Origin: a virus
Virus genome (UHGV): UHGV-0068847
Direction: 5' to 3' (one strand)
DNA: 27,295 nt
The position numbers and the translations under genes are program-made. The notes beneath the pieces are model-generated. The model had not been told where the DNA came from. It saw only the letters and a list, made by a program, of their open reading frames with translations, and did not search any database. Shown here one piece after another: positions 1,717-11,946 of this stretch. Position 1 is the stretch's first letter; each line of letters starts with the position of its first letter.

Positions 1717-2193
1717 TTAGTCCTTCACAAAGATAATCCAGTGGGTTTTGTCGTTCTTCCCGGTACGCTGACCAATTGCAGGTTTCACATCTGTAAGAGC
1801 CAGAATCTGGCTAACTGGGATTTGTGTTTCGTTCCATTTGAAAATAAGCACGCCGCGTGGCCACAGCACCCGAAACGCTTCTTTGAAACCGGCGCGCAAA
1901 TCAGAACGCCACGTTTTTTTGTTCAATCGCCCGTACTTTTTACCCATCCAGGCAGACTGGCCCACGCGTTCCAGGTGCGGCGGGTCAAACACCACAACCG
2001 GAAAAGAAGAATCAGCGAACGGCAATGAACGAAAGTCGGCAATCAGGTCTGGACTGATAACCAGGCGGCGACCGTCGCACAGTTCGTGCTCTTCGGCGCG
2101 GATATCAGTGAACACGGCGCGGGTGTCCTGCTTGTTGAACCAGAACATGCGGGAGCCACAACACACATCCAAAATTATTTGCTCTGCCATCAT
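1717..2193 (-). CDS. Small DNA methyltransferase (N6-adenine or N4-cytosine type, DPPH motif)
   Basis: Translation contains DVCCGS (motif I-like) and VVFDPPH (motif IV DPP[YH]); start ATG at 2193 overlaps the upstream stop (ATGA) and follows GAAGGGGGA; ORF track extends to 2238. Confidence 0.6.
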   Translation of the reverse strand: MMAEQIILDVCCGSRMFWFNKQDTRAVFTDIRAEEHELCDGRRLVISPDLIADFRSLPFADSSFPVVVFDPPHLERVGQSAWMGKKYGRLNKKTWRSDLRAGFKEAFRVLWPRGVLIFKWNETQIPVSQILALTDVKPAIGQRTGKNDKTHWIIFVKD

Positions 2194-2660
2194 TCCCCCT
2201 TCACGCCAATGCCAGCGGCGCGGATTGCGTCGGCACATTCTTCCAGTGCAAAGTTATATTTATCAGAAACTAGCCCGTAACCTTTCGGGTACGGCGTCGG
2301 CAGCGTCACGGTCCGCGCCACCAGTTCTGCTATGCGCTTCTCTGCAATTTCCAGCTCATCCAGCAGCGCCAGCACAGTGGCAGGGTTAGCGGCGGCGATG
2401 AATTCTGCGTTGCGTTTGGCTGTCTCATCCCAAGCCATGTGGTAATCGTGATCCAACTCTTCGTGAATGCACGCTGCTGTGGAATTGGTCATGTCGAGCA
2501 ATGACTCGCTACCGACGTAAACCGCGTATGAGTGGTATCCAGACGCTCTGTCTTCACCCTCGCCGTATTCACCGTCAGTTTCGACAACATCGGACCACCA
2601 TTCGCCCTGGGTGGCTTTCTCTGCTGTTTGGCGCAGCGCCTGTTTGTTGAGTGCTGTCAT
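2190..2660 (-). CDS. Ead/Ea22-like early protein
   Basis: 156-aa acidic protein with NPATVLALLDELE-type C-terminal region recalled from Ea22-like proteins of lambdoid phages; ATGA-coupled to neighbours. Confidence 0.5.
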   Translation of the reverse strand: MTALNKQALRQTAEKATQGEWWSDVVETDGEYGEGEDRASGYHSYAVYVGSESLLDMTNSTAACIHEELDHDYHMAWDETAKRNAEFIAAANPATVLALLDELEIAEKRIAELVARTVTLPTPYPKGYGLVSDKYNFALEECADAIRAAGIGVKGE

Positions 2661-3733
2661 TGGGCTGCCTCCATTGCGAATGTCCCTGCTGTGATAGCCA
2701 TTGCAAGCCTTTGTGCTGCAGCTTTCTGTGCCGGAACGCTGGCAATTACCGTGGCTCTTTCTTTGCTGGCATCAGCACAAACACCATCCCATGAAGAGAT
2801 AAGGAAGAAGTCTTCCAGCTCGGTCATTGTGGCTTTTGTTACCAGTTCTTCGATCATCTGCACGATGATATGCGCAGGGCGACGCCTCAGTAGTTCCTGG
2901 ACTGCATAGCCAAACGCATTGATCATCACCGCATGGAATTGGATGTAATCTCGCTTGTATTCAGCTGGTGATACACCGTGTCGGATACCATCAATAGCCG
3001 TCAGCTTCAGCCACGCTTCCCAAAGGTCATAAATATCGCCAGTAGACAGCGCATCGTCCCCGTTACCCGCGAATTTAGCAGTTGCATCACCAACGGCCTT
3101 AAAACTAATCCAGAGGTCACTTTTTGCCGGAACCACGCTGTGTTCAAAATCGGTGATCTCGGAGAACACTGAGTGAGTGGAGAGGAATGACACCATTGTC
3201 TGGGCAACCTGATCCCTGCCGTTATAAGCCATATTTATTGCTGCAGAAGGCTTAGATACGTTGTTATTGATATCAGAGAAAAATTGCTGGCGTGTCTTCA
3301 GTGGTAGTTGCAGAGTCATCATCAAAGGTACAAACAGGGGTGTATCGTATTCTCTGCAGAACATGGTTATACCTGCACCACGATGTTGCCCATCAAAAAG
3401 TTTAATTTCTGCGTCCATTGGGAACCGAACAACGCCTACGTTTGTATTGCCGAACTCTTCAAACTCCACATGTGAAGCACAGTTACCAACCAGTGGTGGG
3501 ATGATGAAAGGCTCCTTATTTTCAGCAGCTGCCACTAGGTATTCGTAAAAATTTTTTACGCGTGATTTATTGAGTTCACGCTGAGAACGCTCAAGCGTGT
3601 GTCCGTAATTATCAGATGCCAGTACGCGGGATAGGGTTCGTCCTGGAACGTTCATCAAAAGAATAAGCGTATCCCCCTGCAAGCCGCGAGAGGCAGGGAA
3701 CTCGAAGTAATACTCCATACTCGATTTGCTCAT
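2657..3733 (-). CDS. DGQHR-domain protein (DndB-like)
   Basis: 358-aa ORF containing the literal motif LFDGQHRGAGI; no DndA/C/D/E-like partners anywhere in the window; start overlaps the upstream stop. Confidence 0.65.
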   Translation of the reverse strand: MSKSSMEYYFEFPASRGLQGDTLILLMNVPGRTLSRVLASDNYGHTLERSQRELNKSRVKNFYEYLVAAAENKEPFIIPPLVGNCASHVEFEEFGNTNVGVVRFPMDAEIKLFDGQHRGAGITMFCREYDTPLFVPLMMTLQLPLKTRQQFFSDINNNVSKPSAAINMAYNGRDQVAQTMVSFLSTHSVFSEITDFEHSVVPAKSDLWISFKAVGDATAKFAGNGDDALSTGDIYDLWEAWLKLTAIDGIRHGVSPAEYKRDYIQFHAVMINAFGYAVQELLRRRPAHIIVQMIEELVTKATMTELEDFFLISSWDGVCADASKERATVIASVPAQKAAAQRLAMAITAGTFAMEAAQ

Positions 3734-3984
3734 AGCGCGCTTCCCTGTCTGGCTCTATTCAATAGCTGGTTAAACATCATGGTTAGGCTGTTACTACACC
3801 CAAACGGCATATCGTTAACACGGTATGTTGGAATGCCCTTGCGAACACCAGACTTCACGATCCGGCCTGTGCCATAGAGTTGCGATAATGCTCCGGCGAC
3901 CGCTGGCGTAGTTTTGTTCATACCTTTGGCGATTTCACCGCTGGTGGTATTCGGATGAGCCTGGAGATATTCAAATACGGTCAT
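3730..3984 (-). CDS. Small winged-helix-like DNA-binding protein (84 aa)
   Basis: Short ORF with HTH-like segment TSGEIAKGMNKTTPAVAGALSQLYGTGRIV; ATGA-coupled on both sides. Confidence 0.45.
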   Translation of the reverse strand: MTVFEYLQAHPNTTSGEIAKGMNKTTPAVAGALSQLYGTGRIVKSGVRKGIPTYRVNDMPFGCSNSLTMMFNQLLNRARQGSAL

Positions 3985-4148
3985 GGCGTTTTACCTTTAC
4001 GTTCCTGTTCCAGTTGCACCAGAGACTCTTTTAATGCTGCGAACGTAGTGTCCAGTCTGGTGGCGACTTCGCGCATAAGCGGTGCATGCTTTGGTGGCAA
4101 TTCAGCAACGGAGGCAAAAGCCTCCGCTACGAGTTCTTTTACCTTCAT
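3981..4148 (-). CDS. Small hypothetical protein (55 aa), translationally coupled
   Basis: Not in ORF track (below 60 aa); hand-translated MKVKELVAEAFASVAELPPKHAPLMREVATRLDTTFAALKESLVQLEQERKGKTP; start ATG overlaps the stop of 4145..4711 and its stop overlaps the start of 3730..3984. Confidence 0.35.
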   Translation of the reverse strand: MKVKELVAEAFASVAELPPKHAPLMREVATRLDTTFAALKESLVQLEQERKGKTP

Positions 4149-4684
4149 GCGGCACATTGGCGCTGCTCCATCAACTCATTAAAGCGATTTATGAACATGC
4201 CGTATGACTGGCCTGGACGAACTGGGTTGATGATGAATAGGTCCGTCGGGACAACGCCATTGAGGCATGGCCACACGGAACCTTCGTCAATTTCAAAATC
4301 GCGGCGTTCGCTGGCGAGCATCACCAGATCGGCATATTTCACGGTTGGGTGTTGCTCCATAGGAAGGCCAAATTTCTGGCGAATAGCAGCGTCTACGCGA
4401 GCTTCGATCACCTGGTAATCCGGTAACAGGCGCTTAAGCGGTGAGGGGATATCCTGCAGGTATGCTTCGGCGGCATCATGAAGCAGTGCTTCTAATGCAA
4501 ACTCCTGCGGAACGAGATGGCTGGTTAAAACGCTATGCTGGCCGACGCTGTAAAACTCAGGAAGATGCCCAGCAAAGCGGCAGATATGAGACAACGCGGT
4601 AGCGATATCTTCGATCACGATATCGTCCTGTTGGATATCGAGGTAATTAAAATGTTTGCCGGATAATGTCTGAATGTAGCTCAT
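4145..4684 (-). CDS. HD-domain phosphohydrolase, YfdR-like (CPS-53 prophage type)
   Basis: Motifs ALSHICRFAGH and ALLHDAAEAY (H...HD) in translation; ATG at 4684 preceded by GGAG; ORF track start at 4711 is a GTG. Confidence 0.6.
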   Translation of the reverse strand: MSYIQTLSGKHFNYLDIQQDDIVIEDIATALSHICRFAGHLPEFYSVGQHSVLTSHLVPQEFALEALLHDAAEAYLQDIPSPLKRLLPDYQVIEARVDAAIRQKFGLPMEQHPTVKYADLVMLASERRDFEIDEGSVWPCLNGVVPTDLFIINPVRPGQSYGMFINRFNELMEQRQCAA

Positions 4685-4777
4685 GGTTTTCTCCATATTG
4701 GCGCGCTGCACCGCGCAGATTTTGGTTGCACGAATCCCTCGCCGGTTGGCGATAATTAATGGAATTACGCTTCAATA

Positions 4778-4801
4778 AATCCCCGCGGCGCCGGGGATTT
4801 A
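4778..4801 (-). terminator. Hairpin just downstream of the YfdQ-like gene (possible attenuator or weak terminator)
   Basis: AAATCCCCG-cggcgc-CGGGGATTT inverted repeat about 12 nt past the stop at 4813; the U-tract on the minus strand is weak. Confidence 0.3.
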
Positions 4802-4812
4802 ATGCAGAGCAA

Positions 4813-5640
4813 TTAGGCTTTAAAGTTACCGATGAAAGTTTCCACTGATTCACCGTCGAACTTGCTGATCAGCAAATCGCGGAATTCGTTGGCGATCTCT
4901 TCTTCCTGGGCTTCAAGTTGGATGATGCGCAGAACAAAGCAGGGTTCATCGCTGGTCAGCAGGCTGTTACGCAAGCTAAAGCGGCGTTCGCCCAGACCTT
5001 CATACGGCACACATTTGAACTCGAATGCCACAGGCATTACGTCTTTGCTGCTTGCTTCAACGCTTTGCATCAGGGATTTTTTACCAGCGAAATCACTAGT
5101 TTCATGGTCCTGCTGGGTTGCTTGTTGAATGGTGATACGACGCACTGCCTGAGCCGCCTGGGAAATCTGCATCGTATTACCATCGGCATCAAACGCCAGC
5201 AGGTAATCACTCCAGTCTTCCAGCCATTCAGCAATTTGCTTTTGCTTCAGACGTTGACCATCGATCTGCAGTAACGCGCGGAACGGGGCGGTTTTCTTCA
5301 GGGTGATTGAAGCAACGTTATCGGCGTGACCGGGATTATCCAGGGTGCCGATGTTGAACACTGAACGGGCGGTCATATTGTCAGCGTCAATGAAGCAACG
5401 AGCTGGCTCACTGTCGCTGGCGTAACCTTTAGAATAACGTGCGAAGTCGTCAATACTGGTTGTGGTCATTGCGCCACGAAAGCGGAAACGCTCCAGAGAA
5501 AAGCGCTCAAGGCTTTCAACGCCAGTACCATCTGGCAGCAATGCGGTCGGGCAAGCCAGGCCATGAATATCATTCAGGTGATAACCTGAAAGAACCAGGT
5601 CTTTGACCTGCTTGAAGGTACCGCTGTCTAACTGAGACAT
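4813..5640 (-). CDS. DUF2303-type protein, YfdQ-like
   Basis: 275-aa ORF with AAGGA RBS; length and position next to the HD-domain gene match the yfdP-yfdQ-yfdR arrangement recalled from E. coli CPS-53; similarity not verified by search. Confidence 0.5.
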   Translation of the reverse strand: MSQLDSGTFKQVKDLVLSGYHLNDIHGLACPTALLPDGTGVESLERFSLERFRFRGAMTTTSIDDFARYSKGYASDSEPARCFIDADNMTARSVFNIGTLDNPGHADNVASITLKKTAPFRALLQIDGQRLKQKQIAEWLEDWSDYLLAFDADGNTMQISQAAQAVRRITIQQATQQDHETSDFAGKKSLMQSVEASSKDVMPVAFEFKCVPYEGLGERRFSLRNSLLTSDEPCFVLRIIQLEAQEEEIANEFRDLLISKFDGESVETFIGNFKA

Positions 5641-5696
5641 AAAAATTCCTTATTAACTGATGATCAAAGTGGTATCAGTGAGTTTGTTGTTGCGGA

Positions 5697-6068
5697 TCAC
5701 TGTGCCGCTTTAAGCTTTCCATCCACCGCGCCAGTGATCCCGAACAGCTGACCCTGATCTTCCTGCAGGATGGTTAGCTTCCCGCCTTTGTTGACCCACA
5801 TCGGGGTTTCGGTTGTGTCCTCTTCGGAGGCTTTACCACGCGGTGTCGGGGTGCTGTAGTTCAGCTTGTGCTTGATCTTCACGCGCTTCTCTTCAACGGA
5901 ATTACCCATACGCTCAAAATCAAATGTGAGGACTACTTTGCCTTTGTTGCCGTTGTTCAGAACGCCAAGCGCGGTAGTATTAAGTGCTGCCGCGATTTTG
6001 TTCATGAACACGCCGGCATCCAGTTCGCCAAGAAAATCTGGCACTACGGTCATGCGGTCATTACTCAT
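5697..6068 (-). CDS. Hypothetical early protein, possibly YfdP-like (123 aa)
   Basis: First gene of the leftward operon; GAGGG RBS before ATG at 6068. Confidence 0.45.
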   Translation of the reverse strand: MSNDRMTVVPDFLGELDAGVFMNKIAAALNTTALGVLNNGNKGKVVLTFDFERMGNSVEEKRVKIKHKLNYSTPTPRGKASEEDTTETPMWVNKGGKLTILQEDQGQLFGITGAVDGKLKAAQ

Positions 6069-6341
6069 GGTTTTACCCTCGTTAAGGCGGCTGCAACCGC
6101 CGAACTTTCTCCATACACAACAGAGAAGGGCACCTGCATTGGTCGGCGGCTTGCAGAGACCGCTTTCTTTTTGCCCGGGTGGATTGGGTTATGAGCCCGT
6201 CGCCCGGTGATGCCCTTTTCTGTTGTGCCTTGAAAAAGGCTGGCGGTTACCGGACAAGTGGGAAAACACCGGGCCGCCAGAATAGTGGTACAAGGCATTT
6301 GTTATCCTCACCAAACGTACCAATGATTACGTTTGATGATT

Positions 6342-6400
6342 TAAATGTACCTTTAGTTACCTTTGCGGTCAAGCGAGTAATGTACTTTATGTTACCTTTG
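6342..6400. promoter_or_regulatory. Putative left operator region (two 21-bp repeats)
   Basis: ATGTACCTTTAGTTACCTTTG (~6345-6365) and ATGTACTTTATGTTACCTTTG (~6380-6400); same motif recurs at OR. Confidence 0.5.
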
Positions 6401-6448: not shown

Positions 6449-7108
6449 TTAAATGTTTTGAGTGATTTGTACAACTTTTCCGACAATGCGACAGTTACCA
6501 TCAATTTGGATTGGCTTAAATAACGGATTCAGTGGCATTAGGTATGAGTAGGGGCTATCCCAAACTAATTTTTTAACCGTTGCTTCTGATGTCCCATCCA
6601 ATATAGCAACGACTATTTTCCCATATAGATCATCAAGCTGCCCATAATGGGGCTCGACTATAACAATAGAACCTTCTGGTATAGATGGAAGTCCTTGCGG
6701 GTTAGTCATCGACTCACCGCGGACTACTAACCCAAACGCTTCATCCGATACATTTGCAGTTGTTTGAGTCCAGGAAATCACGTCTGTAAGTCTTGAGCAG
6801 GCATAGCTATCCGTCCATAAACCGGCTTGAACTGCCGATATGATCGGTACAGCTACAGGGGGTTTCAAAAAAGGCACGACGCGCGTGTCGTCAATGGCCT
6901 CATCACCGCTTCCATAGAGTATCCACTCTGGTGTTGTTGATAGAGCCTGAGCCAACTGGTGAAGGTTCTCACCATCAGGCTTTGTCGTGCCGTTTTCCCA
7001 TTTTGTAACCGATACACGGCTTACACCAAGCTTTTTAGCCAGTGCTAATTGGGTTATATCCAGCTGGATTCGTCTGGATCTGATGCGGTCTTTCATCTCT
7101 GTTTTCAT
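6449..7108 (-). CDS. cI: CI-like repressor (HTH plus S24/LexA-type peptidase domain)
   Basis: N-terminal HTH (ITQLALAKKLGVSRVSVTKWENG), C-terminal GESM serine motif and downstream Lys; divergent from the cro-like gene across the operator region. Confidence 0.85.
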   Translation of the reverse strand: MKTEMKDRIRSRRIQLDITQLALAKKLGVSRVSVTKWENGTTKPDGENLHQLAQALSTTPEWILYGSGDEAIDDTRVVPFLKPPVAVPIISAVQAGLWTDSYACSRLTDVISWTQTTANVSDEAFGLVVRGESMTNPQGLPSIPEGSIVIVEPHYGQLDDLYGKIVVAILDGTSEATVKKLVWDSPYSYLMPLNPLFKPIQIDGNCRIVGKVVQITQNI

Positions 7109-7200: not shown

Positions 7201-7404
7201 ATGTATAAGTCCGAAGTCGTAAAGCATTTTGGCGGTATCTCTAAAACCGCTGTTGCTTTGAATATCTCACACCCTGCCGTATGTCGTTGGGGAAAGGTCA
7301 TCCCTGAGAAGCAAGCCTTCGTAATAGAGAGAATTACTAATGGGAAACTTAAGTATGACGCATCCCTATATCACAAGGTTACAGGCGTATCTGCTAACCA
7401 GTAA
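7201..7404 (+). CDS. cro: Cro/YdaS-like HTH regulator
   Basis: 67-aa ORF with GGAGG RBS, directly right of the operators and divergent from cI; HTH-like segment ISKTAVALNISHPAVCRWGK. Confidence 0.7.
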   Translation: MYKSEVVKHFGGISKTAVALNISHPAVCRWGKVIPEKQAFVIERITNGKLKYDASLYHKVTGVSANQ

Positions 7405-8150: not shown

Positions 8151-8330
8151 GTGCGCGAACTTAATCGAAGGTTCAAAGACAACCGCGGAGTGCCAGTCCG
8201 TGTTATCCGCTGGGAGCCAGAAACACAGCGCGTTATCTATCTGCGTGATGGCTACCCGCACGAATGCTTCAGCCCACTTGAGCATTTCAGGCAAAAGTTC
8301 AGGGAGATAACGGACGATCATGAGCACTAA
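8151..8330 (+). CDS. Candidate small protein (59 aa, GTG start)
   Basis: Hand-translated VRELNRRFKDNRGVPVRVIRWEPETQRVIYLRDGYPHECFSPLEHFRQKFREITDDHEH; GGAGG 9 nt upstream; ends overlapping the next start; competes with the Ser/Arg-rich ORF 7984..8310. Confidence 0.3.
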   Translation: MRELNRRFKDNRGVPVRVIRWEPETQRVIYLRDGYPHECFSPLEHFRQKFREITDDHEH

Positions 8331-9186
8331 ATTAACCGGCTACGTATGGGATGGTTGCGCAGCGTCGGGCATGAAGTTGTCTAGTGTCGCGATCATGGCT
8401 CGCCTTGCTGATTTCAGCAGCGATGAAGGTGTGTGCTGGCCGTCCATTGAAACTATTGCTCGCCAGCTTGGCGCAGGGCCGAGCACTATCAGAACGGCAA
8501 TCGCAAAGCTTGAAAAAGATGGCTGGCTCACGCGCACACAGCGCCGTAATGGTAACCGTAATGCTTCGAACGTGTACCGCCTGAATGTGGCGAAACTTCA
8601 GGCTGCCGCATTTTCTCAACTGTCAGATTCTGACACGTCAAAATCTGACGCATCAAAATTTGACGCCTCAAAAACTGACCCGTCGAAATCTGGCAAAAAC
8701 GGCGGTTTTGACCCGTCAGAATCTGGCGGGGATCCGTCAGTAAAATCAACACAAGATCCACAAGTAACTTCAAAACCCTCTTGTCCGGTTGCGGCGCAAC
8801 CCGACCCTGAGATTGTGATTACTGATCAGGCCAGACAGGTTTTGTCTTACCTGAACCAGACAACTGGTTCACGCTATCAGGTATGCAGCACGTCGCTGGA
8901 GAACATTCGTGCCCGTCTGCGGGAACGGTTCACTGTTGATGATCTGTGCCTTGTGGTGGATTACAAAAACGCTGATTGGCGTGATAGCGAGCAGGCTCAA
9001 TATCTCCGTCCGGCAACTCTGTTTATTCCAAAAAACTTCCCTGGTTACCTGCAAAGCGCGACCAAATGGTCTGCCGCTGGGCGACCTGAGCGCGTTAACG
9101 GTAAATGGACGGCTAACTCAGCCAGCCGCGCAAGCTTCCAAAATGTTGACTACTCACTTCCAGAACATTCGGGGTTCCGCTCATGA
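8320..9186 (+). CDS. Replication initiator-like protein (N-terminal HTH, phage conserved C-terminal domain)
   Basis: N-terminal HTH-like region; central low-complexity S/D/K repeat encoded by the iterons; position after cII-like as in lambda O. Confidence 0.55.
   Translation: MSTKLTGYVWDGCAASGMKLSSVAIMARLADFSSDEGVCWPSIETIARQLGAGPSTIRTAIAKLEKDGWLTRTQRRNGNRNASNVYRLNVAKLQAAAFSQLSDSDTSKSDASKFDASKTDPSKSGKNGGFDPSESGGDPSVKSTQDPQVTSKPSCPVAAQPDPEIVITDQARQVLSYLNQTTGSRYQVCSTSLENIRARLRERFTVDDLCLVVDYKNADWRDSEQAQYLRPATLFIPKNFPGYLQSATKWSAAGRPERVNGKWTANSASRASFQNVDYSLPEHSGFRS
8621..8723. repeat. Tandem 15-bp iterons (putative replication origin) inside the initiator gene
   Basis: TGACACGTCAAAATC, TGACGCATCAAAATT, TGACGCCTCAAAAAC, TGACCCGTCGAAATC in tandem at 8631-8690, with degenerate copies at 8621-8630 and 8709-8723. 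Confidence 0.55.
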
Positions 9187-10064
9187 TGCCAAATAAATAT
9201 TGCCAGTCGCTGGCAGAACTGCGCAGTAAACCAGCTCACGAATTGAAAGAAGTTGGCGATCAGTGGCGAACACCGGATCTGCTGTTTTGGGGGATCAACG
9301 CGCTATTTGGTCCATTAGTTCTGGATTTGTTTGCTGACGACGACAACGCGAAATGCCCGGCATGGTACACCGCCGAAGATAACGCGCTGACCCAGGACTG
9401 GTCTGAACGTCTGGCAGAACTGGGTGGCGCAGGTTATGGCAACCCACCGTATAGCCGTTCGCAGTACCACGAGAAACAGGCGATCACTGGTATGACGCAC
9501 ATCATGAAGTACGCAGCAGCCCAGTGCGAGAAGGGCGGTCGCTATGTATTCCTGATAAAAGCCGCGCCAAGTGAAACGTGGTGGCCGGAAGATGCCGATC
9601 ACATTGTATTCATTCGCGGGCGCATTGGGTTCGATCTGCCAGTGTGGTTTGTACCTGCTGACGAAAAACAGAAGCCCACCAGCGCGTTTTTTGCCGGTGC
9701 CATAGCTGTATTCGATAAGTCATGGCGTGGTGAGCGGTTCAGCTATATCAACCGCACAGAACTGGAGGCAAAAGGTCGGGCATTTATGGCGCTGGCTCAA
9801 TTCGCTGTTGGCAAAGAGCCGACAATTGCAATGCGAGCACCCCAGGAGCCAGTCATACCATCGGAAACTGAGTCACGTATCTGGCCTCTCGAGGTTGGTC
9901 TGGTGTTTAACCAGGTGGAAGGCGTTGACGTATTGAGTGAGGCTCAGCAGAACAAGCTGAAAGCCAACATCAATCAACTCTGGCTGGAACGAACGGCCAC
10001 CAGCGAAATTATCACAATTGCGCGTGGTCTTGTCGGCAGCATGCAGGGGGTAACCCATGCGTGA
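9183..10064 (+). CDS. Dam-family DNA N6-adenine methyltransferase
   Basis: NPPY catalytic motif (GYGNPPYSRS) and phage Dam-like N-terminal region (WRTPDLLFWGINALFGP). Confidence 0.8.
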   Translation: MMPNKYCQSLAELRSKPAHELKEVGDQWRTPDLLFWGINALFGPLVLDLFADDDNAKCPAWYTAEDNALTQDWSERLAELGGAGYGNPPYSRSQYHEKQAITGMTHIMKYAAAQCEKGGRYVFLIKAAPSETWWPEDADHIVFIRGRIGFDLPVWFVPADEKQKPTSAFFAGAIAVFDKSWRGERFSYINRTELEAKGRAFMALAQFAVGKEPTIAMRAPQEPVIPSETESRIWPLEVGLVFNQVEGVDVLSEAQQNKLKANINQLWLERTATSEIITIARGLVGSMQGVTHA

Positions 10065-11946
10065 GATTATCGTTGATAACTTTGCTGGTGGCGGTGGCGC
10101 ATCAACGGGTATTGAACTGGCGATCGGACGCAGCGTGGATATTGCGATCAACCACGACGAAAACGCCATTGCGATGCACAAGACGAATCACCCGGAAACA
10201 CTGCATTACTGCGAATCCGTATTTGACGTGGATCCGGTAGCCGCCACCGGAGGTAATCCTGTCGGCCTGGCATGGTTTAGCCCGGACTGCCGACACTTCT
10301 CGAAGGCAAAAGGCGCCAAGCCTGTGAAAAAAGAGATACGCGGTCTGGCCTGGATTGTTCTGCGTTGGGCACTGGCAAAGCGACCGCGCGTGATGATGCT
10401 GGAGAACGTGGAAGAGTTCAAAACGTGGGGACCGCTATTACCAGCTGAGCCACAAAATCCCAATCTGGTGGGGGATGATTTGGCTGCATTTGTTGGCCCA
10501 GTTATACCGCCTTATGATGCGCAGCGTCCGGATCCGGCACGAGCTGGTGAAACATTTGAGGCATTTGTCGGCATGCTATCCACTGGTATTCCTGCTGATC
10601 ACCCGGCACTGGCTGAGGTTTGTGAGTTTCTGTCTATCGAAAGAGGTAGCGAGCAGGCGCAAAAGCTGGTGGATGGGCTTGGATATGATGTTGATTATCG
10701 CGAACTACGCGCGTGTGATTACGGCGCGCCGACGATCCGCAAACGCTTCTTCATGGTTATGCGCTGCGATGGCTGCCCAATCCAGTGGCCTGCAGTTACC
10801 CATGGGGATCCTAAGTCTCTGGAGGTGCAGAGCGGCAGGCTGATGCCATGGCGTACCGCTGCGGAATGTATCGACTGGAATGTTCCGGCCCTGTCCATCT
10901 TCGACCGCAAAAAAACGCTGGCGGAGAACACGCTGAAGCGGATCGCGCGCGGCATACAGCGCTTTGTTATCGAAAGTGCGTCGCCGTTTATCGTGAAGTG
11001 CAATCACACCAGCACCAAAACGAGTTACGACTGTTTCCGTGGTCAGAAGCTGGACGAGCCTTTGCAAACTATTACTAAAACCCACGGTTACGCGTTAGCT
11101 GTTCCACACCTGACAAAATTCCGCACTGGGGCAACCGGGCAGCCCGTTACCGAACCTGTCCCGACGGTAACCGCTGGCACGTCAAAACGCCCGGGTGGGA
11201 ATGGGCATGCACTCGGGATTGTTGAGGCTGCACTGACGCCATTCCTGGCGGGTAATGGTGGTAGTGAATACCAGGCTAAACCGCGCCCGCTGGATAAACC
11301 TGCTCATACCATTATGAAGCAATCCCGCGCCTGTCTTGTTGCGCCAGTGATAGCCCGCCAGTTTGGGGCCAGCGTCGGCCACCGGGCAGACGAACCGAGC
11401 GCCACAATTACAGCTGGTGGTGGAGGTAAATCACAATTGGTGGGCGCGTTTCTGGCTAAACACTACGGCGGTAACTATACGGGACCGGGTGTCAGTATGG
11501 ATGAACCCGCACACTCAGTGACCACTGTCGATCATCATGCGGTTGTTGCCTCTCATTTGGTGAAACTGCGTGGAACATGCCGCGACGGGCAACGTCTTGA
11601 TGTGCCCATGCCAACAATCACCTCTGGTGGCCAACACGTGGGTGAGGTACGCACATTTCTCGAGACGTATTGCGGGGAAAGTGACGATGAATGGCTGGTA
11701 ACGATCGATGGGGTTAAATACCAGATCGTTGATATCGGAATGCGCATGTTGCAGCCGCATGAACTCTACAAAGCGCAGGGCTTCCCGGATGGATACGTTA
11801 TTGATCAGGACTACCGTGGAAATCGCTATGCAAAAGATAAGCAGGTAGCCCGCTGTGGTAATGCGGTACCACCACCATTCGCCAGGGCGCTGGTGGAGGC
11901 AAATCTTCCGGAACTGTGTGCAGTGCAACATCAGGAGGTGGCATGA
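10057..11946 (+). CDS. DNA cytosine-5 methyltransferase (629 aa)
   Basis: Motif I FAGGGG, ENV, QxRxR-like IRKRFF, GNAV; catalytic Cys lies in SPDCRHFS instead of canonical PCQ; start overlaps the Dam stop. Confidence 0.8.
   Translation: MREIIVDNFAGGGGASTGIELAIGRSVDIAINHDENAIAMHKTNHPETLHYCESVFDVDPVAATGGNPVGLAWFSPDCRHFSKAKGAKPVKKEIRGLAWIVLRWALAKRPRVMMLENVEEFKTWGPLLPAEPQNPNLVGDDLAAFVGPVIPPYDAQRPDPARAGETFEAFVGMLSTGIPADHPALAEVCEFLSIERGSEQAQKLVDGLGYDVDYRELRACDYGAPTIRKRFFMVMRCDGCPIQWPAVTHGDPKSLEVQSGRLMPWRTAAECIDWNVPALSIFDRKKTLAENTLKRIARGIQRFVIESASPFIVKCNHTSTKTSYDCFRGQKLDEPLQTITKTHGYALAVPHLTKFRTGATGQPVTEPVPTVTAGTSKRPGGNGHALGIVEAALTPFLAGNGGSEYQAKPRPLDKPAHTIMKQSRACLVAPVIARQFGASVGHRADEPSATITAGGGGKSQLVGAFLAKHYGGNYTGPGVSMDEPAHSVTTVDHHAVVASHLVKLRGTCRDGQRLDVPMPTITSGGQHVGEVRTFLETYCGESDDEWLVTIDGVKYQIVDIGMRMLQPHELYKAQGFPDGYVIDQDYRGNRYAKDKQVARCGNAVPPPFARALVEANLPELCAVQHQEVA

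Follow-up and report, generated by a model that had tools for sequence, protein, structure and literature searches.

The prophage analysed here, UHGV virus genome UHGV-0068847, is a lambdoid prophage covered by a window of 27,295 nucleotides (the whole stretch of DNA that was analysed). The gene under study, on the minus strand at 2657-3733, encodes a protein of 358 amino acids (aa) of the DGQHR/DndB family and is a lone, ORF-sized cassette (ORF, open reading frame) that has been shuffled into the early-left operon. It stands outside any Dnd or Dpd modification system and forms no functional unit with the two small genes that precede it. We tentatively propose, as a possibility that we place somewhat short of probable, that this self-contained cassette encodes a nucleoside triphosphate (NTP)-gated DNA-binding switch which would help the element carrying it to become established, possibly against host defences.

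A full-length DndB-family protein without Dnd or Dpd partners

An initial annotation, which placed three ORFs on the minus strand between 2657 and 4148, had singled out a literal DGQHR motif as the mark of a DndB-type protein. All three ORFs are where it placed them, and the motif occupies residues 114-118 of the 358-aa product, whose translation reads ...EIKLFDGQHRGAG... (KLFDGQHRGAG). Profile searches bear out the family assignment, with 191.6 bits (E 2e-56) for TIGR03187, the DGQHR domain, against a cutoff of 58.85, and 161.1 bits (E 5e-47) for PF14072, DndB, against a cutoff of 29.1. Since both scores are well over their cutoffs, the pentapeptide is not a chance match. PADLOC assigns the protein to its DndB model, and its Pfam and NCBIfam matches are to the DndB and DGQHR families and nothing else. 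The cutoff of 328 for TIGR03233, the DndB equivalog, is not reached, at 111.3 bits. By its sequence, the protein is thus a full-length member of the DndB family, but not DndB proper.

The likeness to DndB (DptB) extends to the PF14072/TIGR03187 superfamily, the length (358 versus 361 aa), the two-domain layout, the DGQHR motif and the core residues. The window protein differs from E. coli DndB, with which its identity is only 27%, in falling below the equivalog cutoff and in being encoded by a lone cassette on phages and plasmids. Residues D41, R49, Q51, R52, R58, Y65, G100, L145, Q149, F152, D154, N156, Y170 and E197 are invariant, in addition to DGQHR itself, in an alignment of the window protein with the SPN1S, plasmid, Vibrio-phage, Rheinheimera and Gilliamella orphans and canonical E. 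coli DndB. As the same residues are invariant through to canonical DndB, the biochemical core is kept in the window protein. In DndB-like proteins this core serves ATP/GTP binding, and such binding has been demonstrated for a bacterial DndB-like protein (bioRxiv 10.1101/2025.10.10.680097). Among closer relatives, 109 columns are invariant in 21 sequences of 57-88% identity, and a search of 1.84 billion cluster representatives gave 521 matches at E<=1e-3, 43 of them at E<=1e-30.

In an AlphaFold2 (AF2) model of moderate quality (predicted local distance difference test, pLDDT, 79; predicted template modelling score, pTM, 0.56), the protein shows a ParB/sulfiredoxin-type fold in its N-terminal half, followed by a helical C-terminal half. 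The helical domain gave no convincing structural match, and no nuclease or other effector domain was found in the protein. The two loops of lowest confidence in the model, residues 41-52 and 157-172, correspond to ~3578-3613 and ~3218-3265 of the window (minus strand). The first contains an RSQRE motif that is invariant in close homologues, and the second a VSKP motif, in the stretch NNNVSKPSAAINMAYNGR, that is also highly conserved. Both loops are likely to be elements that become ordered by a ligand or by DNA.

The initial annotation described the gene as an orphan, which holds for the window and for the 108 related loci described below. Profile searches among the ORFs of the 27-kb window gave nothing for DndA/C/D/E, DpdA/TGT or PAPS reductase. 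Partners of the dndC/D/E or iscS type are absent both from the window and from the annotated recurrent neighbours of the 108 loci, in contrast to the real dndBCDE operon of E. coli NADC 6564 (L198). The dnd island of that strain carries, directly after dndBCDE and on the opposite strand, a 281-aa DGQHR protein and a further gene annotated as DndB (L198, 6608-7501), so that canonical dnd islands do carry additional DGQHR paralogues.

DpdB is a DGQHR-type ParB-fold ATPase that acts on DNA together with a modification enzyme. The window gene differs from it in gene context, with no DpdA/TGT-like, queuosine-pathway or preQ0-synthesis gene in the window or among the annotated recurrent neighbours. 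The protein also differs from the CTP-dependent clamps of the ParB/KorB type, having neither a ParBc/TIGR00180 match nor a ParB-type helix-turn-helix (HTH), in a window without parA. The DUF262 modules of GmrSD, SspE, DndI and BrxU have a DGQQR motif (PMC4619093) and a fused DUF1524/HNH nuclease, whereas the window protein has DGQHR and a helical C-terminal half without a nuclease match.

The resemblance to DndB raises the possibility that the protein is an NTP-dependent transcriptional repressor or regulator of phage genes or of a host locus such as a resident dnd operon or another modification operon. DndB binds the dnd promoter and negatively regulates phosphorothioate modification (PMC4507180), and the window protein shares its full-length architecture. 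Nevertheless, we find such a role quite unlikely: a shared DNA specificity is improbable at 27% identity with conservation mostly in the N-terminal core, and, as the cassette comprises no intergenic DNA, a cognate operator could not be accommodated beside the gene. Moreover, about 2% of genomes carry a dnd cluster (PMC8569181), whereas the clade is widespread in the prophages and plasmids of Enterobacterales. The protein may be a modification-sensing or anti-modification factor, as the initial annotation suggested. The rarity of dnd clusters, together with a likeness to DndB that is concentrated in the N-terminal nucleotide-binding core, makes a Dnd-specific role unlikely as the general function of the clade.

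The DGQHR gene is exchanged as a single gene

We compared the window with 108 related loci, 28 from species-representative genomes and 80 from IMG/VR, whose DGQHR proteins are 27-99% identical to that of the window; the IMG/VR loci are redundant and not phylogenetically independent. Neighbouring genes were called by a greedy longest-ORF caller, which miscalls some overlapping genes, including the Ead gene and the methylase of the window.

The coupling of the DGQHR gene to a small winged helix-turn-helix (wHTH) protein and a 55-aa ORF, as proposed in the initial annotation, is contradicted by this comparison. The three genes occur together in only one of the 108 loci (tblastn), a twin prophage (L031) whose DGQHR protein is 99% identical. 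Taken one by one, the 84-aa wHTH gene (wHTH84) is found in 5 loci, the 55/58-aa ORF (orf58) in 8, the HD-domain gene upstream of it in 13 and the Ead gene in 2, by a tblastn search with the window proteins which may miss very divergent homologues of the 58-aa product; the neighbour clusters nonetheless differ between loci. At megablast sensitivity, none of 5,426 complete E. coli genomes contains most of the 1.5-kb region of the trio, and 46 genomes give a partial match. One of these has the DGQHR gene alone, beside a different ParB-like gene, and the others (~45, e.g. Nissle 1917) have HD-orf58-wHTH84 followed by unrelated genes, without DGQHR.

The same separation is seen among 79 further prophages that were fetched with the window integrase. 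The closest siblings (integrase 97-99% identical) mostly show the order CI-phrog204-DUF2303-HD-orf58-wHTH84, then methyltransferase/orf100/xis/int, without DGQHR, and wHTH84 is present without DGQHR in all of the siblings L111-L117 except L114. Two of them, L115 and L117, match the window by blastn at 1-2175 and 3723-6225, with ~340 bp in place of 2176-3722. The Ead/Ea22-like gene is missing from these two along with DGQHR, and elsewhere it is unlinked to DGQHR. Conversely, blastn homology to otherwise unrelated prophages covers exactly 2657-3733 in L001 and L033, and 2638-3733 in L032. Because the recombination joints coincide with the start and stop of the ORF, we conclude that DGQHR is an autonomous one-gene mosaic cassette.

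A functional module of all three genes would have in its favour their adjacency with ATGA overlaps in the window, their joint presence in L031, and wHTH84-like genes that lie 0.4-0.9 kb upstream of DGQHR in four loci of the closest clade (L033, L035, L036 and L040). Such a module is very improbable, as orf58-wHTH84 occurs without DGQHR in ~45 E. coli genomes and most of L111-L117, the junctions fall exactly at the DGQHR start codon, and the genes found upstream of DGQHR in other loci are mutually unrelated (ParB-like, Xre-type HTH, PerC, HTH_11-like, DUF1317, exonuclease, and proteins with no match). The trio is a case of ordinary lambdoid mosaicism, and DGQHR is unrelated in inheritance to its two small neighbours.

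Two other candidates for an upstream partner were considered. A looser version of the partnership, in which any small HTH protein upstream would be analogous, is not supported, the upstream genes being mutually unrelated and often not DNA-binding. Genes for ParB-HTH proteins are the commonest upstream type, at position -1 in ~20 loci, and the ParB-like gene (cluster c14/c27) was rejected as a specific partner. Of 33 control prophages with the window's integrase family in which c14 was found, only 6 carry DGQHR, so that this gene is lineage background and not a partner.

The neighbours of DGQHR are highly varied across the 108 loci, as judged by clustering. The upstream neighbour is co-oriented with DGQHR in 101 loci, the gaps to both neighbours have a median of -4 nt, and an integrase lies downstream in 71 loci, at a median distance of 2 kb. 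The cassette is typically inserted, translationally coupled, at the distal end of the early-left operon.

The cassette is embedded in the leftward early operon

From the repressor leftward, the minus strand of the window carries phrog_204, DUF2303, HD, orf55, wHTH, DGQHR, Ead/Ea22, methyltransferase, a 100-aa ORF, xis and int. The features of this region are as follows.

7201-7404, plus strand: cro, which like a cII-like gene is faced by the repressor gene
6449-7108, minus strand: CI-like repressor gene, facing cro
6344-6372, minus strand: candidate pL just left of the repressor gene, promoter-like TTGACC-17-TACATT, from a consensus scan alone
5697-6068, minus strand: phrog_204 gene
4813-5640, minus strand: DUF2303 gene
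4145-4711, minus strand: HD-domain phosphohydrolase, YfbR-like 5'-deoxynucleotidase family (phrog_318, E 8e-98; PF12917, 22 bits, sub-threshold)
3981-4148 or 3981-4157, minus strand: 55- or 58-aa ORF, with its ATG at 4148 or 4157 (phrog_12248, E 7e-34)
3730-3984, minus strand: 84-aa basic protein, isoelectric point 10.1, probably winged-helix (phrog_1687, 'MarR family', E 1e-24)
2657-3733, minus strand: DGQHR/DndB-family gene, 358 aa (TIGR03187, PF14072)
2190-2660, minus strand: Ead/Ea22-like gene, downstream neighbour of DGQHR (PF13935, 68 bits)
1717-2238, minus strand: small orphan DNA methyltransferase, two genes downstream of DGQHR (PADLOC MTase_II, 236.7 bits; phrog_954, DNA methyltransferase)

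The string of ATGA-overlapped genes in an early operon, as initially described, is confirmed by the sequence, from which four consecutive start/stop overlaps can be read directly (HD/orf55, orf55/wHTH, wHTH/DGQHR and DGQHR/Ead). The consensus scan of the coding strand of DGQHR showed no further promoter-like site between 6372 and 1297. These overlaps and the single promoter-like site near the repressor place the DGQHR gene in the leftward early transcript. The gene would thus be co-transcribed and translationally coupled with the leftward early operon, and, being embedded there, its product would be made in lytic development or early infection and not in the lysogen.

This expected timing bears on whether the protein could be a prophage defence or superinfection-exclusion factor, that is, a ParB/DUF262-like sensor of foreign or modified DNA which protects the lysogen. 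Accessory genes are frequent at the variable int-proximal ends of prophages, which would suit such a function, as would the recognition of the protein by the PADLOC DndB model. A related ParB-fold domain, the DUF262 of GmrSD, SspE and DndI, forms the sensing or NTPase module of defence nucleases (PMC11662687). We nonetheless judge it improbable, given that the protein has no nuclease or other effector domain, that expression in the lysogen is unlikely for a gene with no promoter-like site of its own and ATGA overlaps within a repressed early operon, and that the inspected plasmid relatives (see below) lie among ssb, antirestriction and psiA genes, not in defence islands.

Elsewhere in the window there are replication genes, RusA, an antirepressor, DUF968 and Q, and the remaining ORFs are probably lysis and morphogenesis genes. 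Inside the replication-initiator-like gene at 8320-9186 (HTH_36 and Phg_2220_C), a 15-bp unit (TCTGACGCGTCAAAA) is repeated in 4.3 copies at 8629-8692; these repeats are probably origin iterons, a typical lambdoid arrangement.

The small neighbours and the HD gene

The wHTH label of the initial annotation is moderately supported, being plausible and not firm. The 84-aa protein matches phrog_1687 at E 1e-24, and its Pfam matches, although all sub-threshold, are all to winged-helix families (FaeA/PapI, HTH_24 and MarR). A single-sequence AF2 model shows the order helix-helix-helix-strand-strand with low confidence (pLDDT 59) and is too poor for a fold search. Whatever its fold, this gene is an adjacent but separate mosaic unit and no conserved partner of DGQHR.

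The 55/58-aa ORF is a real, conserved small gene that travels mostly with HD, directly downstream of which it is found in most of the int-anchored loci that carry it. The two genes, HD (phrog_318, deoxynucleotide monophosphatase family) and the small ORF, form a conserved pair whichever gene comes next, be it wHTH84 or a ParB-like gene (L111-L117 and L154-L189). If the small ORF has a functional partner, this may be the HD enzyme and not DGQHR.

DNA methyltransferases in the prophage and near DGQHR genes

In addition to the small methyltransferase downstream of DGQHR, two further methyltransferase genes lie on the plus strand.

9183-10064, plus strand: PF05869 phage Dam methyltransferase
10057-11946, plus strand: C5 cytosine methylase, 629 aa, directly after the replication gene

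With 1717-2238, the prophage therefore has three DNA methyltransferases of different families, which is unusually many and a sign of heavy investment in self-methylation or restriction evasion.

Across the DGQHR loci, a methylase is found 1-3 genes downstream of DGQHR in 35 of 109 and upstream in 1 of 109. The downstream methylases span at least five unrelated families (D12 Dam, PF05869 Dam, MT-A70, N4/N6-type and C5). The same order is found in divergent members such as Rheinheimera (27-35% identity) and in isolated phages, namely DGQHR-MT-A70-int in SPN1S and DGQHR-C5 methylase-int in Vibrio phage Va_PF430-3_p42.

Such a recurrent order, together with the window methylase two genes downstream and the enrichment of fusions between a ParB-CTPase fold and a methylase in prophages, might indicate that the orphan methyltransferases of the element are assisted or targeted by the DGQHR protein. 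It would then be a split version of the ParB-domain-methyltransferase fusions that are common in phages, and would load a methylase onto phage DNA or stimulate it there, which would aid escape from restriction. We consider this unlikely. Two thirds of the DGQHR loci have no nearby methylase, and the counts include the non-independent IMG/VR loci. In the int-anchored control, a methylase lies within 8 kb in 18 of 63 prophages without DGQHR and in 0 of 6 with it, so that no enrichment of methylases with DGQHR is shown. The fixed order may be merely positional, since methylases also come last before xis/int in the siblings without DGQHR.

Orphan DGQHR genes on plasmids and in other phages

Judged by sequence identity, the closest non-phage relatives of the window protein are the products of orphan DGQHR genes, 37-40% identical and encoded on conjugative or mobilizable plasmids (40% for the IncL/M protein and 37% for the IncHI2 protein over ~350 aa, compared to 27% for E. 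coli DndB). When PLSDB was searched by tblastn with the 39%-identical plasmid-type protein of Buttiauxella/Dryocola contigs, a relative was found in at least 1,078 plasmid records. Of these, 887 are conjugative, and most come from Klebsiella, Enterobacter and Escherichia. Like the window gene, the DGQHR genes of the IncL/M, IncHI2, Edwardsiella and Vibrio plasmids are orphans, and they lie among genes that would be expressed early after entry (ssb, antirestriction, psiA and radC). They differ in that most of those inspected carry a C-terminal extension of ~70-95 aa (427-453 aa in total), which the IncHI2 protein (356 aa) lacks.

In the IncL/M plasmids of the pOXA-48/pCTX-M3 family, the DGQHR gene (427 aa) is flanked by parM and mobA and runs in the same direction as JAB/RadC, DUF4942, hha, DUF1380, ssb and an antirestriction gene; the DUF4942 neighbour has no relative in the PDB by sequence. 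One form of pOXA-48, discussed below, has its DGQHR gene split by IS1 and represents a natural knock-out. On the Edwardsiella plasmid (L195, 7004-8978), psiA, hok and an antirestriction gene come after DGQHR, with MobC nearby, and on the Vibrio plasmid DGQHR is followed by radC and a ParB-N-domain protein. The neighbourhoods in these three closely inspected plasmid types look like leading-region, establishment-type neighbourhoods, with a presumed orientation relative to oriT. Leading regions are anti-defence islands rich in orphan methylases, ssb and SOS inhibitors that are oriented for early expression (PMC11541004). A supplementary table of the same study holds, uncommented, a 7-member 'DGQHR domain-containing' family, the sole trace of the plasmid orphans in the literature.

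Several other relatives show distinct arrangements. In Buttiauxella/Dryocola contigs (L014-L017; 39% identity) and in the Edwardsiella plasmid (L195), a DGQHR gene of 434-438 aa lies immediately upstream of psiA and no psiB is annotated; we take this position to be the slot normally held by psiB. The extra C-terminal 80-90 aa of these psiA-adjacent proteins have no Pfam match. In the IncHI2 plasmid p680_1 (L196, 5977-9499), a 669-aa protein of the PAPS-reductase family is encoded two genes downstream of the orphan DGQHR gene. The pair is reminiscent of DndB-DndC and IbrB-IbrA and possibly constitutes a two-gene system of its own. About 20 Vibrio phages (~83 kb; most from V. crassostreae or from seawater or oyster) encode a 490-aa DGQHR protein with 33% identity and a long C-terminal extension, with a DNA ligase and an RdgC-like gene nearby (L191, 5998-7470).

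A possible role in the establishment of mobile elements

By analogy with DndB, DpdB and other ParB-fold proteins, we propose that the DGQHR protein, made with the leftward early operon, may bind ATP or GTP as well as DNA and would act as an NTP-gated, DNA-associated switch. Speculatively, this switch would help an incoming or replicating element to become established, for example by blunting host immunity that targets DNA or by conditioning the DNA of the element. We regard an establishment role as the best supported because phages and plasmids alike carry the gene in those compartments from which expression starts, because the inspected plasmid homologues adjoin known anti-defence genes, and because the gene has neither an effector domain nor an adjacent promoter-like site for expression in the lysogen. 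The initial annotation had read the early-operon location as one expected of anti-defence or host-takeover functions. This reading is plausible by context and is strengthened by the plasmid neighbourhoods, while the function itself, like its target, stays speculative.

Several observations weigh against an establishment role. The step from context to function would be guilt by association alone, and both early-left operons and leading regions also house genes that are unrelated to defence. The strong conservation of the protein fits an enzyme or a DNA-directed activity better than a fast-evolving inhibitor of defence, and the AF2 model, only moderate as a whole, is least certain in two of the most conserved loops (41-52 and 157-172). 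The common 63.6-kb form of pOXA-48 has its DGQHR gene split by IS1 (L193, 7998-9281), whereas other IncL/M plasmids have it intact at 427 aa; the disruption of this epidemic copy indicates that, at least under some conditions, a plasmid can spread without DGQHR. The plasmid contexts were read closely in a handful of the at least 1,078 records, and a literature search turned up no paper or experiment on the orphan DGQHR clade.

A broader reading, which we hold to be rather doubtful, is that the orphan DGQHR proteins as a whole are an unrecognised and widespread establishment or anti-defence class of temperate phages, where they occupy the distal end of the early-left operon, and of conjugative plasmids, pOXA-48/IncL-M family included, where their surroundings look like leading regions. 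They would act as NTP-gated ParB-fold DNA switches for the protection or conditioning of incoming DNA, possibly with orphan methyltransferases.

To our knowledge, proteins of the DndB family have been described only in an accessory capacity, within Dnd and Dpd modification of DNA. Here the NTP-binding core of this family takes the form of a lone, ORF-sized cassette, placed where mobile elements keep the genes for the first minutes after entry, and the inspected plasmid carriers include the pOXA-48 family, which spreads carbapenem resistance. If the clade does not aid establishment, the gene is merely another annotated 'DGQHR domain-containing protein' without an assigned function. If it does, the anti-defence repertoire would gain ParB-fold NTPases as a further biochemical class, and these proteins would offer a testable handle on the host range of plasmids and phages.

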